DNA from: a virus
Taxonomy: Duplodnaviria; Caudoviricetes
Strand: one strand, 5' to 3'
IMG/VR virus record: IMGVR_UViG_3300033076_001247
Location: 1 to 64,000 of that record
Length of the DNA: 64,000 nt
Shown here: piece by piece, positions 3,566 through 41,281 of the stretch
How the letters are laid out: each line of letters starts with the position of its first letter
Position numbering within the stretch: position 1 is the stretch's first letter
Program-made: the position numbers and the translations under genes
Notes under the pieces: generated by a model
The model's database searches: none
The model's input: only the letters and a program-made list of their open reading frames with translations
What the model was told of the DNA's origin: nothing

Positions 3566-4015
3566 CTAGTCCTCGTCCTCCTCGAACTCTTCCGCCTCTT
3601 CTGCGGCCTCGCCCTCTTCGGCGTGCTCGTAGAGGTCTTCGAGCGGACCACCCGAGAGCCAGTAGAGCGCGAGCGCCACGGCGTACGGGTGTTCGAGCTC
3701 CTTGCCCTTGCCTTCGGGGTCGACCACGGCGACGAAGCGCTTCCAGAGACCGACGTCCTTGACGCCGCTCGGAGCCTCGTCTTCCTCGGGGTCGAAGCCG
3801 GCGAGGTGCTCGGCCATTTCCTCGTGACCGGTGGCGTCCTCGTCGTGGGCGACCGCGACGGCCTTCGCCATCAAGTCAGCCGCCTTCTTCTTGAGGTCGG
3901 CCTCCTTCTGGCTGGCCGGAGCCTTCGCCACACCCGGCTCACCGAGCATGCCGCCCTTGCCGCTGCCCTCGCCCGCGCCGTGGCCGGCAAATGCCTTGAG
4001 CTTCGCTGCGTCCAT
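3566..4015 (-). CDS. Acidic hypothetical protein
   Basis: MDAAKLKAF...EEFEEDED; codon usage fits the genome. Confidence 0.6.
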   Translation of the reverse strand: MDAAKLKAFAGHGAGEGSGKGGMLGEPGVAKAPASQKEADLKKKAADLMAKAVAVAHDEDATGHEEMAEHLAGFDPEEDEAPSGVKDVGLWKRFVAVVDPEGKGKELEHPYAVALALYWLSGGPLEDLYEHAEEGEAAEEAEEFEEDED

Positions 4016-18081: not shown

Positions 18082-18387
18082 ATGCTCGGAGACGAACACA
18101 AGGCGACGGTCGACGGCTACGCCCGCTCGGTGCTCGAGGCATGGGCGAGCGACGGTCGGCCGATGGCGGAGTTCGCCGAGAGGGCAGGGCTGACGCCGCA
18201 GGCGGTCTCCCAGATACGGCTCGGCCAGTGGGGCGTCGGCATGAAGGGGCTGCGCGGCTTCTCGCACGCGCTTGGCGTCACGCTGTCGGACTTTGAGGAG
18301 CGCGCCCTCGCCTGGCACGCAGCGGGTCGGCCGCCGCTCGGGCCGGAGGCGCTGGCGGGTGTCAGCGTGCAGGGAGGTGGGAAGTGA
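18082..18387 (+). CDS. XRE-family HTH regulator (Cro/CI-like)
   Basis: AEFAERAGLTPQAVSQIRLG...ALGVT. Confidence 0.8.
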   Translation: MLGDEHKATVDGYARSVLEAWASDGRPMAEFAERAGLTPQAVSQIRLGQWGVGMKGLRGFSHALGVTLSDFEERALAWHAAGRPPLGPEALAGVSVQGGGK

Positions 18388-19148
18388 AGGTCGGCTTCGT
18401 CGCCTGCTCGTCGAGCAAGCTGACCCGCGCCGCCCCGGCGTGGCAACTCTACACCTCGCCGTTGTTCCGGCTGTCAGTTGCATACCTGACGCAGAAGGTC
18501 GGCGTCGACCGCTGGTACGTCCTGTCCGCGAAGCACGGGCTCGTCGCGCCGGAGACGGTCATCGAGCCGTACGACGAGACGCTGACGAAGCTCGGTAAGG
18601 CCGAGCGCGCGGCGTGGGGCGAGCGTGTCGCCGAGCAGATCTACGCCGAATGGCGGAAGTGCGGCACCGACTGGCGCATGCAGGTGCTCGCCGGCAATAG
18701 CTACTGCCAGCCGCTTCGCGCGGCGTTGAGCGCCAAGGTCAATCCGTTCAAGGTCATGCGCCACCTCGGCTTCGACGAGCCGCTCGACGGGAAGGCCATC
18801 GGCGAGCGGTTGCAGTGGCTGTCGAGCGAGCTCGGGCGCGACGACAATGCCGCGCGCAAGTCGGGCGACCTCGACGAGCTGATGCGGCAAGTCCACTGGC
18901 ATTACCCGTGGGGAACGGCGCGGGGGCAGTACGCGGTCGTCGACGGGGTGCCGGTGACGGTCTCGAAGCGAGGCTTGGAGTGGGCCGTCGAGGTCAAACG
19001 ACTGACCGGCGCCCCGATGATGGCGACGGCCGCGACGGGCAAGGACGCGAAGGCTGCGGCGATTCATGCGGTTCGCGCTGGCGCGTGGCTGGTAACGGGC
19101 TATCGGACGACCTGGCACGAGCCGGCGGTCGAGGGAGGCGACGAATGA
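18384..19148 (+). CDS. DUF6884-like protein
   Basis: VACSSSK...A..LYTSPLF...WYVLSAKHGL......PYD.TL. Confidence 0.75.
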   Translation: MKVGFVACSSSKLTRAAPAWQLYTSPLFRLSVAYLTQKVGVDRWYVLSAKHGLVAPETVIEPYDETLTKLGKAERAAWGERVAEQIYAEWRKCGTDWRMQVLAGNSYCQPLRAALSAKVNPFKVMRHLGFDEPLDGKAIGERLQWLSSELGRDDNAARKSGDLDELMRQVHWHYPWGTARGQYAVVDGVPVTVSKRGLEWAVEVKRLTGAPMMATAATGKDAKAAAIHAVRAGAWLVTGYRTTWHEPAVEGGDE

Positions 19149-19333: not shown

Positions 19334-19641
19334 AACCCATCACCTGGACCTTCCCGCACGGCCACGTTCGCGACGGGCGGATATCTCGGTTCGCCGGCAC
19401 GGCGTACGACGGGCGCATCGAGATCGAGATGGTCGGCTCGGCGCCTGACGGGTGGTGCGCGCTGCTGTACCGGCGCGGGTCGCCGCTGCCGGCGGTCACG
19501 CTGTCGATGTCGGGACCGTCGGTGGTGCCGCTGCAGAACGCGATGCAGGTCGTCGTCGAGCGACTGATGCGGGCCGAAGGCGCGGACGGCGTCATCGAGG
19601 ACGCGGACAACGAGAGGCTGGCGGCTCGGGGGATGCTGTGA
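19330..19641 (+). CDS. Hypothetical protein
   Basis: GTGA-coupled at both ends. Confidence 0.55.
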   Translation: MKPITWTFPHGHVRDGRISRFAGTAYDGRIEIEMVGSAPDGWCALLYRRGSPLPAVTLSMSGPSVVPLQNAMQVVVERLMRAEGADGVIEDADNERLAARGML

Positions 19642-20309
19642 CCGAGCGTAAGCTCCGCATCGGGTCGCTGTTTGCCGGCGTCGGTGGGTTCGACCTCGGC
19701 TTTGAGCGAGCGGGTTTTGAGACGGCATGGGCCGTCGAGATTGACGAGAAGGCGCAGGCCGTCCTACGGCTGCGGTTCCCGAGGGCCGAATTGCACGACG
19801 ACGTGACGAAGATCGGAGCGCACAACCTCGGGCCGGTCGACGTGATCACCTACGGTTTTCCATGCCAGGACCTCTCGGTCGCCGGCAAGCGCGCGGGCCT
19901 CGACGGCCAGCGCAGCGGACTTTTCCATGAAGCAGTTAGAGTTATTCGCGAGCTTCGGGCGCGCGACGGCAAGCCAGATATCGCCATCGCCGAGAACGTC
20001 CCCGGACTTTTCAGCAGCAACGCTGGCCGAGACTTTGCTGTCGTCCTCCAAACGCTGGTCGACGTCGGGGCGCGTGACGTCGCGTGGCGAGTGCTGGACA
20101 GCCAGCACCACGGAGTCGCTCAACGCCGCCGTCGCGTGTTCATTGTCAGCGATTTTGGAGGCGAACGCGCCGCAGAAATACTTTCTCTCGCCGAGGGCGT
20201 GCGCGGGGATTCTGCGCCGCGCCGCAAAACGAGGAAAGGCGCTCCCGCCGCTGCTGGAGCAGGCGCTCCGAGCAGTCTGCGAATCGACGGAACAGGGGGG
20301 GGGGATTAG
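19638..20309 (+). CDS. C5-cytosine DNA methyltransferase, alpha part (motifs I-VIII)
   Basis: SLFAGVGG, GFPCQDLS, ENVPG, QRRRRVF; stop codon right after the G10 tract. Confidence 0.9.
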   Translation: MTERKLRIGSLFAGVGGFDLGFERAGFETAWAVEIDEKAQAVLRLRFPRAELHDDVTKIGAHNLGPVDVITYGFPCQDLSVAGKRAGLDGQRSGLFHEAVRVIRELRARDGKPDIAIAENVPGLFSSNAGRDFAVVLQTLVDVGARDVAWRVLDSQHHGVAQRRRRVFIVSDFGGERAAEILSLAEGVRGDSAPRRKTRKGAPAAAGAGAPSSLRIDGTGGGD

Positions 20310-21024
20310 CGGCGCCGTGAGTTGCAAGTGGGCCAAAGGGACCGGCGGGCCTGCGGGCGACGAGTATCAGAACCTCGTCGCGACCGAGACGGTCGGCACC
20401 TTGTGCAGCGACACGCACCCTGGTGCGTACTCGGGTCAGGACGCCTACACGGGGCGGCTGGTGCCGATGAAGGCGAAGGACGAGACGGTCGCCTGTTACG
20501 ACTACCTCGGATCGCATGGTGGTGGCGTCGAGGTGGGCATTAGCCCGACGTTGAAACGGAAGGACGGCGTTGCGGTGACTGTCCCGGTTGCCTTCCGTAT
20601 CTACCCCGGCCAGCCGACAGAAGGACGTGCCGCTGAGTTGCATGCATGCGAGACGGACATAGCAAACGCCGTGACCGTGACCGAGCACGCGCGCTCAACC
20701 GACAGAGGAACGAGAGTCGTTTGCGCGACGGGCGACATCACCCACACTCTCGACGGCGCTCACGGTGCAACCGAAGACGGCACAGGCAGAGGCACGCCGA
20801 TTGTGCCAACCCCGCGCATGGCGGTGCGAAGGCTGATTCCCAGAGAGTGCTCAAAACTGCAGGGATTTTCTCCTGACTGGAACGCTGAGGGCGTCGACAA
20901 GGCGGGCAAGCGCATCGTCATGGCCGACTCGTCGCGGTACAAGCAGATGGGTAACGCAGTCACCGTCAACGTCGCGCAGGCCGTCGCGGAGCGCGTAGCG
21001 ATGGTGCTGGGAAGGCAGTCGTGA
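19927..21024 (+). CDS. C5 methyltransferase beta part in the +1 frame (overlap domain, variable region, motifs IX-X)
   Basis: MKQLELF...SLSAILE...KYFLSPRACAGILRRA...RRLIPRECSKLQGF...RYKQMGNAV. Confidence 0.85.
   Translation: MKQLELFASFGRATASQISPSPRTSPDFSAATLAETLLSSSKRWSTSGRVTSRGECWTASTTESLNAAVACSLSAILEANAPQKYFLSPRACAGILRRAAKRGKALPPLLEQALRAVCESTEQGGGISGAVSCKWAKGTGGPAGDEYQNLVATETVGTLCSDTHPGAYSGQDAYTGRLVPMKAKDETVACYDYLGSHGGGVEVGISPTLKRKDGVAVTVPVAFRIYPGQPTEGRAAELHACETDIANAVTVTEHARSTDRGTRVVCATGDITHTLDGAHGATEDGTGRGTPIVPTPRMAVRRLIPRECSKLQGFSPDWNAEGVDKAGKRIVMADSSRYKQMGNAVTVNVAQAVAERVAMVLGRQS
20295..20304 (+). repeat. G10 homopolymer at the alpha/beta frame junction
   Basis: ACA GGGGGGGGGG ATTAG. 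Confidence 0.85.
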
Positions 21025-40177: not shown

Positions 40178-41281
40178 TCAGACGCGCACGGGCATGATGA
40201 CCGACAGCGTCTTCGCGCTCGCGACCGTCTCGCCGTGCGGCAGCACGAGAATCGGCTCTTCCTTCGCCACGAGGCGCAGGTCGACCGCCTCGCCGCCGAT
40301 GGCCTTCACCGCCTCGCGCAAGTAGCCGGGGTTCAGTCCGATGTCGCTCTCGGTGTCCTTGCCGACGACCGCCGCGTCGTGCGTGACGACGAGCTCGCCG
40401 AGGTCGGGTTCTCGAGCCGCGAGTGTGATCGACTGCCCGGCGACCGTCGCCTGGACGCGCAGCGACGTCCCGCCGATAGCCCGCGCCTGCTCAGTCGTCT
40501 CGACCAGAAGGCCGCTGTCGACCGTGACCGTCTGGCCCTCGCCGACTGCCTCGACCACGCTGCGCCAGTCGGGGTGCTGTCCGTCGATGAGGCGCATCAC
40601 GAGCGCCTGGCTGTCGTCGGCGTAGTGGATCGCGTTCGCCTCGAACGTGAATCGACCTTCGGCTCGAGCGCAAGCGCGGAGCATCTTCGTCGCGTCGCCG
40701 GCCACAATGACCTGCGCGTCCTCGCCGAGCGTCAGCCCGACCGGCCACGCCGTGCGCGTGAGCGCCAGCCGGTGCCCGTCGGTCGCCATCAACGCGAGCC
40801 GGTCGCCGTCGCGGGACAGACTCACACCACACAGGGCATACCGCGTCTCGTCATGGCCCACCGCGTGAGCGACCTTCTCAAAGGCCGTCGAGAGCCGGTC
40901 CCACTGCGGGCACAGGTCGTCTGCCTTGCAGGGCACCGAGATGGCCGCGCTGTCGGCGTCGATGAGAGGCACTGCGAACCGAGCAGCTCCGCTCTGAACC
41001 GTCAGGCGCCGGGCCAGAGACGGGCAATCAAGGCTCGTCGTGTCCCCGTGCAGCGCGCCGACCACCGCCGCGAAGTGACGCAGCGGGACGACGGCCTGCA
41101 ACGTCGAGATGCCGCCCGAGACGCCGAGCCGCCGCTCGTACCAGTCGCCGATCACGTTGACGCTCACGCGCAGCGTGTCGCCGTAGCCCTCGAGGCGGAC
41201 CTGCGTCGTCCCGTCCGTCCGTCCCACGCGCAGCCCGAGGGCGAGCGCCTCCTGCAACTCTTCCGTCCGAACCTTCGTCAT
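40178..41281 (-). CDS. dnaN: DNA polymerase III beta sliding clamp
   Basis: DETRYALCGV, ATDGHRLA, RLIDG..PD...V, N..YL.EA, VIMPVR. Confidence 0.9.
   Translation of the reverse strand: MTKVRTEELQEALALGLRVGRTDGTTQVRLEGYGDTLRVSVNVIGDWYERRLGVSGGISTLQAVVPLRHFAAVVGALHGDTTSLDCPSLARRLTVQSGAARFAVPLIDADSAAISVPCKADDLCPQWDRLSTAFEKVAHAVGHDETRYALCGVSLSRDGDRLALMATDGHRLALTRTAWPVGLTLGEDAQVIVAGDATKMLRACARAEGRFTFEANAIHYADDSQALVMRLIDGQHPDWRSVVEAVGEGQTVTVDSGLLVETTEQARAIGGTSLRVQATVAGQSITLAAREPDLGELVVTHDAAVVGKDTESDIGLNPGYLREAVKAIGGEAVDLRLVAKEEPILVLPHGETVASAKTLSVIMPVRV

Follow-up and report, generated by a model that had tools for sequence, protein, structure and literature searches.

What would a phage produce from a cytosine-C5 methyltransferase gene whose catalytic half and recognition half lie in different reading frames and meet at a run of ten G's? 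The gene lies on a 74-kb IMG/VR viral contig of 68% GC that was assembled from a metagenome, and the window, i.e. the whole stretch analysed here, comprises 64 kb of it. The G run occupies positions 20295–20304 (local sequence ...acggaacaGGGGGGGGGGattagc...), and the features around it are arranged as follows.

19638..20309, plus strand: alpha ORF, 223 aa; GTG start at 19638, TAG at 20307–20309; C5-methyltransferase motifs I–VIII
19927..21024, plus strand: beta ORF, 365 aa, +1 frame relative to alpha; ATG at 19927, TGA ending at 21024
19927..20306, plus strand: 380-nt overlap of the alpha and beta frames (dual-coded)
19933..19947, plus strand: QLELF, beta residues 3–7, resembling the bacterial clamp-binding pentapeptide
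20084..20320, plus strand: third-frame ORF, GTG start, 78 aa, ending GGGLAAP
20137..20283, plus strand: KYFLS block in the beta frame (CSLSAILE..KYFLSPRACAGILRRAAKRGKALPPLLEQALRAV), the selected frame
20295..20304, plus strand: G10 homopolymer, the frame toggle; GGG-GGG-GGG-G(at) in alpha, (ca)G-GGG-GGG-GGG in beta
20305..21021, plus strand: C-terminal half, short recognition-type modules followed by motifs IX and X

The alpha motifs are readable directly as LFAGVGGFD (I), FPCQD (IV), ENVPG (VI) and QRRRRVF (VIII), and alpha residues 7–171 match PF00145 (E=1.8e-49). The GTG start of alpha shares bases with the TGA of the preceding ORF (GTGA), and its TAG lies 2 nt past the G run. The ATG of beta is located 380 nt ahead of the alpha stop, and the TGA of beta shares bases with the GTG of the following ORF. 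From its N-terminus, beta is composed of MKQLELF, an out-of-frame image of alpha motifs VI–VIII, the KYFLS block, the G tract (read as GGG), the recognition modules and motifs IX–X. The PF00145 match of beta is restricted to the C-terminal motifs IX–X (residues 297–357 against profile positions 272–322, E=1.9e-9), and this C-terminal part aligns to the solved cytosine-specific methyltransferase structures 3lx6/3me5. The C-terminal half contains the recognition-type modules SCKWAKGTGGPAGDE.., VGTLCSDTHPGAYSGQDAYTGRLVP, YDYLGSHGGGVEVGISPTLKRKDG, ..TVTEHARSTDRGTRVV and CATGDITHTLDGAHGATEDGTGRGTPIVP, with motif IX (VRRLIPRE) at about 20824 and motif X (GNAVTV) at about 20950. Across the tract the peptide reads ..TEQGGGISGAVS.. 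in the beta frame and ..DGTGGGISGAVS.. in the alpha frame. The gene thus has the motifs of a C5 cytosine DNA methyltransferase, with I, IV (PCQ), VI (ENV) and VIII (QxRxR) in alpha and IX and X in beta. These coordinates and PF00145 matches agree with an earlier note on this DNA, which had described a dual-frame layout of an alpha ORF with motifs I–VIII and a +1 beta ORF that crosses the G10 run and carries motifs IX–X.

G10 is the sole homopolymer longer than 7 in the 64 kb at 68% GC; GGGGGGG matches four times in overlap, always within the tract, compared with a mean of 9.8 in dinucleotide shuffles. A homopolymer of at least eight bases placed within a reading frame, with its length setting that frame, is the hallmark of a contingency locus. 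Product sets were computed by in silico editing of the tract length. G10, the state of the window, gives an alpha of 223 aa and a beta of 365 aa; G9 gives an alpha of 461 aa and a beta of 130 aa that ends in GGGLAAP; G11 truncates both, to 227 aa and 127 aa, and G8 likewise truncates alpha and beta. Every product of the three-state arithmetic for G9, G10 and G11 given in the earlier note was reproduced. In the G8 or G11 state the third-frame ORF from GTG 20084 would continue into the C-terminal half, and by this reading of the frames the third state may not be null; the third-frame ORF itself may owe its openness to chance alone in this high-GC DNA.

Natural tract alleles were then compared among relatives of the window. 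The split G10 form is present in the window and in L008, L017, L018 and L028, i.e. in five separate assemblies that have diverged from each other elsewhere, and in all five motifs I–VIII and IX–X lie on separate ORFs. In the four relatives, which come from different projects and assemblers, the run is followed by ATTAG or ATCAG. G9, read as a single ORF of 502–565 aa, is found in L012–L016 (five sequencing runs) and in L030, so that single-chain and split alleles are both present in close relatives. In L019 (G8T) and L029 (G8A) a synonymous base breaks up the tract, and both relatives read as one ORF. In L020 an 11-nt deletion between two G runs places the C-terminal half in the beta frame, on a contig of only ~1x coverage. 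No G8 or G11 allele was seen among relatives of the window's clade. The overall switch reading of the earlier note is thus supported in part: the layout, the arithmetic, the natural occurrence of both alleles and the selection on the beta frame described below all stand, and for this clade the third state exists by calculation only.

The homologous tract also varies in cultured cluster-J mycobacteriophages, being G6 in Thibault, G8 in Omega, Dove and Hannaconda, G9 in Lucky2013, Schatzie and Dallas, and G10 in NihilNomen and JuicyJay. Dove, Dallas, NihilNomen and JuicyJay have identical flanks despite the G8/G9/G10 difference. Tract length therefore differs between otherwise near-identical genomes, both here and as G9/G10 in the clade of the window, and the variation at the homologous site in cultured phages indicates that the tract is hypermutable in real phages. 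Other lineages have a G run elsewhere in the gene, as KWAKGGG in L023, between motifs V and VI in L030, and ahead of motif VIII in Faecalibacterium phage Toutatis; a methylase gene of Burkholderia phage phiE125 may contain a poly-G tract as well. Pattern scans of IMG/VR returned the L008 contig alone, and those of JGI metagenomes returned nothing.

The window derives from a metagenome-assembled contig and the L008 contig stops 28 nt past the tract, both of which could be taken to mean that G10 reflects a sequencing or assembly error at a homopolymer, or that the gene is a dead pseudogene. The tract length in related genomes had been set in the earlier note as the test of an assembly error, and the relatives are not all G9. 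An assembly error is ruled out by four further independent and diverged assemblies, produced by different assemblers, that share this G10; a dead gene is hard to reconcile with the purifying selection seen on the beta frame and on both halves. We consider either form of this explanation very improbable.

To determine which frame is under selection, differences among six to nine relatives were tallied by alpha codon position in three segments. Ahead of the beta start, differences at alpha positions 1/2/3 amount to 133/97/505 and the alpha pN/pS is 0.19; by these counts this segment is ordinary coding sequence. From motif VIII to the tract, the differences amount to 171/65/70 and are concentrated on alpha position 1, which is position 3 of beta. 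In this segment, pN/pS is 1.15 for alpha and 0.24 for beta with the relatives pooled, 1.59 and 0.13 among the G10 genomes, and 1.47 and 0.33 among the single-chain genomes. The codon-position pattern and the pN/pS values together indicate that the segment is selected as KYFLSPRACAGILRRAAKRGKALPPLLEQAL, i.e. in the beta frame, even where alpha reads through, and the alpha reading of the KYFLS-block bases is an unselected linker that evolves neutrally. Across 15 beta-type proteins, 23 columns of the block are invariant. Purifying selection on the beta frame ahead of the tract makes it very probable that beta is translated. Among the G10 genomes, the C-terminal half has a pN/pS of 0.15.

The hidden frame is not confined to the clade of the window. 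A tblastn search with the 62-aa KYFLS block matched 137 phage records, and every match checked (P1 dmt, Streptococcus phage Javan102, Bcep22, Roseobacter phage CRP-821, Caulobacter phage DMCA, and mycobacteriophages Omega and Lucky2013) falls inside a CDS annotated as a methylase and is read at +1 relative to it. In P1 dmt (49% GC) the +1 ORF extends over 163 open codons, against 9 stops in the third frame; in Javan102 (39% GC) the figures are 135 codons and 13 stops; the ORF is likewise open in Bcep22 and further relatives. Upon synonymous reshuffling of the alpha codons, the +1 frame stays open in 1–4 of 2000 trials for P1, Javan102, L009 and CRP-821. The corresponding counts are 181/2000 for the window and 535/2000 for Bcep22, both of high GC, and in these two an open +1 frame says little by itself because reshuffled high-GC codons often keep the frame open. 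In every pair tested among the window and these phages, the +1/+1 similarity scores are 133–190 against a null of 28–49, and the +1 peptides score as high as the alpha peptides of the same DNA. Retrieval of IMG/VR loci by the C-terminal half alone gave 82, of which 78 contain the KYFLS block, and the block lies +1 of motif VIII in 66/66 IMG/VR loci.

The consensus of the block is KYFLS..GILRRA..KRGK.LP..L..AL, which is basic and helical. In the PHROGs collection it matches phrog_16143; phmmer and profile searches with the block found no solved structure in the PDB and no Pfam family. The block may be homologous to the segment after motif VIII in Dcm-type enzymes. An AlphaFold2 model of beta alone has a mean pLDDT of 38, and only the KYFLS block reaches 62–73, as helix. 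The model of a single-chain relative (P0015) is confident at residues 1–186 and 430–500 and below 50 between them, a range in which a disordered linker and poorly aligned modules look the same. A search with the KYFLS profile matched 5,081 protein clusters among 1.84 billion representatives. The best 142 proteins include 108 that are short and end directly after the block, 16 long betas with motif IX, and 3 in which the N-terminal part of alpha is joined to the beta frame. Beta has the features of a hidden +1 gene, namely a conserved KYFLS..GILRRA..KRGK.LP block after motif VIII that is selected on its own. Given the conservation of this block at +1 inside related methylase genes and the 5,081 matching clusters, comparative evidence identifies beta as a family-wide hidden overlapping gene in phage C5 methyltransferases rather than a peculiarity of the window gene. 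Across the family it usually ends as a short stand-alone protein.

The C-terminal half is arranged in several ways. The 53 distinct IMG/VR loci comprise 26 single chains and 27 with the C-terminal half as a separate ORF, in all three frames. Multi-chain enzymes are therefore common in the family, with the C-terminal half separate in about half of the loci. A true fusion of beta to the C-terminal half was found in 0/53 of these loci, an unbiased sample, which makes the fused beta a minority arrangement. The best 120 matches to the window beta include 55 single-frame enzymes and 35 long betas that have the KYFLS block and motif IX without PCQ; none of the 120 combines motifs I–VIII and the block in a single frame. 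Long betas turn up repeatedly in distant, tract-less lineages, e.g. L021 (P0074). The G10 form of the window, with beta fused to the recognition half, is by this survey a recurring minority form. Module content differs between close relatives.

A frame switch directly after motif VIII, through a slip on a T run or a programmed frameshift, that would place motifs I–VIII, the KYFLS block and the modules in one chain was also considered and rejected as the main route. None of the 55 single-frame full-length homologues has the block in frame with motifs I–VIII, no slippery site common to the window and L008 was seen at this point on reading the two sequences, and the beta start is conserved.

The main rival to an architecture switch is a plain ON/OFF contingency switch, in which G9 is ON, G10 is OFF, the fusion is non-functional and the beta frame is kept for the short hidden protein. 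The prevalence of short stand-alone beta among the best 142 KYFLS proteins and the lack of true fusions in the 53 IMG/VR loci fit this explanation, as do the selection on the beta frame in single-chain genomes and the mycobacteriophage tract lengths, which fall in all three frames. The short stand-alone beta might by itself account for all of the selection on the KYFLS block, making the G10 fusion an inert by-product. However, the clade contains six G10-type sequences and no G8 or G11, though slippage from G9 should give both equally, a sample that is small and phylogenetically non-independent. The low pN/pS of the C-terminal half among the G10 genomes also runs counter to an OFF state, and the independent 11-nt deletion in L020 again lands the C-terminal half in the beta frame. 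Long betas recur in distant tract-less lineages, and separate-chain enzymes are not only common in the family but known to work, as in M.AquI (PMC3404938). Taken together, the evidence argues against the ON/OFF explanation, which we regard as unlikely, while leaving room for an inert G10 fusion.

Starting from the observed anatomy, the natural G9 and G10 alleles, the selection on the beta frame and the family-wide conservation of beta, we favor, with a probability of roughly 0.6, a phage C5 methyltransferase with several recognition modules and a beta gene overprinted at +1, in which the length of the G run sets the products. Beta would open with a QLxLF-type motif and end in the conserved, basic and helical KYFLS block just past motif VIII, and the hypermutable G run would be placed exactly where beta normally ends. 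The G9 state would produce one chain of 461 aa, containing the catalytic half, the unselected linker, the recognition modules and motifs IX–X, plus a free beta of 130 aa. The G10 state would produce a catalytic chain of 223 aa and a beta-recognition chain of 365 aa, which would have to assemble in the manner of M.AquI for alpha and the long beta to form an active enzyme. In the G8 or G11 state both chains would be cut short unless the third-frame ORF from GTG 20084 initiates. Slipped-strand mispairing during phage DNA replication would move lineages between the tract states, presumably fast enough for a switch at the population level.

As far as is known, slippage in bacterial transcription favors A/T runs. 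This preference disagrees with another explanation, a correction at the level of expression, by which RNA polymerase, or the ribosome with a +1 slip, would slide on the G run and yield some full-length alpha, making the state of the DNA less important than it looks. The length of the run and the position of the alpha stop one codon past it are in its favor, and homopolymers in general are well-documented sites of recoding (PMC5009743). However, no stimulatory element was found, and such a correction does not explain why the beta frame is selected 130 nt ahead of the tract or why the beta start is conserved. We therefore consider it improbable.

The start of beta is conserved in the clade as M-K/R-Q-L-x-L-F with a GGA 9–11 nt upstream. 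The Shine-Dalgarno-like signal ahead of ATG 19927 is weak, consisting of this GGA, and we infer from the conserved sequence that beta initiates at this ATG. Within MKQLELF, residues 3–7 (QLELF) resemble the bacterial clamp-binding pentapeptide, whose consensus is QL(S/D)LF (PMC9690074). Of 78 distinct N-terminal regions of beta, 24 contain the pattern Q..[LM]F, mostly directly after the start codon; the counts for the two remaining frames of this DNA are 0 and 0, and residue shuffles give 1.4 on average (maximum 6). Relative to the alpha motifs, the QLxLF-type motif is found in no fewer than three places and is thus not a shadow of alpha conservation. The bases of QLELF read GTT AGA GTT ATT in the alpha frame, which is AT-rich for a genome of 68% GC. 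The same phage encodes a DnaN-like clamp at 40178–41281 on the minus strand.

These observations point, tentatively, to a possible role of beta as a sliding-clamp adaptor. QLxLF would dock on the beta clamp of the phage or the host and the KYFLS block would bind the methyltransferase or DNA, so that newly replicated phage DNA might be methylated at the fork. The G tract would then set whether the tether and the recognition half form one covalent chain (G10) or the tether is a free subunit (G9), and the same hidden gene would be at work in thousands of phages, including P1. Such an arrangement would be analogous to the tethering of eukaryotic DNMT1 to PCNA.

Two-chain C5 methylases are known, and the citation of M.AquI and M.EcoHK31I as precedents in the earlier note is a fair one. 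In M.AquI, motifs I–VIII reside on one polypeptide and IX–X on a second, and both are required for activity (PMC3404938). The G10 allele of the window similarly splits motifs I–VIII and IX–X over two ORFs. It differs in that the second chain begins 380 nt inside the first gene in another frame and holds all the recognition modules together with the conserved extra KYFLS block, and in that a homopolymer can rejoin the halves as one chain. M.EcoHK31I depends for its activity on a beta chain that the alpha gene encodes in an alternative frame (PMC2836561). The window beta also starts in an alternative frame inside alpha, a likeness of layout. EcoHK31I beta lies wholly inside alpha and supplies motif IX only, whereas the long beta of the window runs 715 nt past the alpha stop and supplies the modules with IX and X; the short beta of the G9 state, in contrast to a nested beta of the EcoHK31I kind, has no methyltransferase motif.

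Bacterial phase-variable methyltransferases contain repeat tracts within their ORFs that slip and shift the frame (PMC10123105, PMC11475388), and the window tract is likewise within an ORF, with its length shifting the frame. The bacterial examples, found in host-adapted species, are for the most part adenine methylases of Type III or Type I and are switched ON and OFF. The window gene encodes a phage C5 enzyme, and two of its three frames appear to give usable products that differ in chain architecture. The Dmt protein of P1 is a homologous enzyme with the same hidden +1 ORF and KYFLS block inside the annotated gene; it differs in being a single chain fused to a Dam domain, in lacking a long G tract at the homologous site, and in having a +1 ORF that terminates as a short protein. 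Multispecific C5 methyltransferases of Bacillus phages (SPR and phi3T type) contain short tandem recognition modules between motifs VIII and IX. The window modules are similarly arranged in tandem between VIII and IX and vary in content between close relatives, a resemblance in layout, and we know of no frame switch or overlapping gene described for the SPR/phi3T-type enzymes. Our literature search found no description of a poly-G switch in a phage C5 methylase or of the hidden +1 gene. What was known before comprises C5 methylases of two chains and the phase variation of methylases by repeats (PMC3404938, PMC2836561, PMC10123105).

Phage methyltransferases shield phage DNA from host restriction, and a heritable but unstable switch of enzyme architecture would let a phage population hedge across hosts. 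If the two-chain form is active, frameshifted phage methylase genes should not be dismissed as pseudogenes. If QLxLF binds the clamp, the family would, as far as we are aware, provide a prokaryotic example of DNA methylation that is coupled to replication by a tether on the clamp. A protein-coding gene is hidden at +1 of a very widespread phage methylase family that includes the model phage P1, and standard annotation misses this gene or labels it a broken methylase.

Changes in the G tract were found among close relatives of the window. Compared with the otherwise identical single-chain relative L019 (1849-1867), in which the tract is interrupted, contig L020 (1461-1468) has a deletion of 11 nt, with loss of TATTAGCGGGG, flanked by one run of eight G's and another of four. 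The deletion moves the C-terminal half, which carries the recognition modules and motifs IX-X, into the beta frame; coverage of the L020 contig is only about 1x. The G9 single-chain relative L030 contains a second G9 tract (1240-1248) between motifs V and VI, and a GGG-coding site lies at the matching position of the G10 relative L018. In the state set by this second tract, the beta start MKQLELF.. is fused to the alpha frame at ..GGGPRFAVWENVPG, and motifs I-IV are thereby cut off. The IMG/VR contig L008, the closest relative, ends at 3697, 28 nt past its G10 tract, and this end may be an assembly break arising from tract-length heterogeneity. In another G10 relative, L028 (1-1238), the alpha gene is interrupted by an intein (Hint_2) whose insertion point directly precedes the catalytic cysteine in motif IV (..IVHN|CQDLS..).

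G tracts also occur at other sites in the family. Faecalibacterium phage FP_Toutatis (L003) has a G9 tract (1446-1454) 5' of motif VIII, through which the N-terminal part of alpha, with motifs IV and VI, runs straight into the beta frame; the annotated first CDS consequently lacks motif VIII and has the KYFLS block, the conserved beta-frame segment, at its end. In a more distant clade, L023 carries a G8 tract elsewhere (1877-1884), at KWAKGGG.., where relatives read RGGWPAG, RGGGPAG or GGGPAG; one of these, P0024, is a single chain.

The homologous tract of cultured cluster J mycobacteriophages (L001, L002, L006 and L031-L036) differs among isolates, being G6, G8, G9 or G10. Annotation splits their methylase into two or three genes or marks it 'coding region not determined', and in some of these genomes the gene also contains an intron or HNH endonuclease insertions. 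Three loci (L090, L094 and L117) have three ORFs in three frames: the alpha chain stops after motif VIII, the short beta stands alone, and the C-terminal half is an ORF of its own. In these loci the N-terminus of beta (..TLFAEDSPAKTS) corresponds to alpha motif IV (DIVCGGFPCQD) read in the +1 frame.

Elsewhere in the window, the following genes were identified:

18384-19148, DUF6884 protein gene, upstream of the methylase
40178-41281, minus strand, DnaN-like sliding clamp gene (Pfam DNA_pol3_beta_2, 5.6e-15; beta_3, 5.6e-9)

The clamp gene bears on the QLELF motif that opens beta. Both ends of the methylase gene have start/stop overlaps, GTGA and ATGA (19638-19641, 21021-21024 and 21190), and the methylase of the window is part of a tightly coupled operon.
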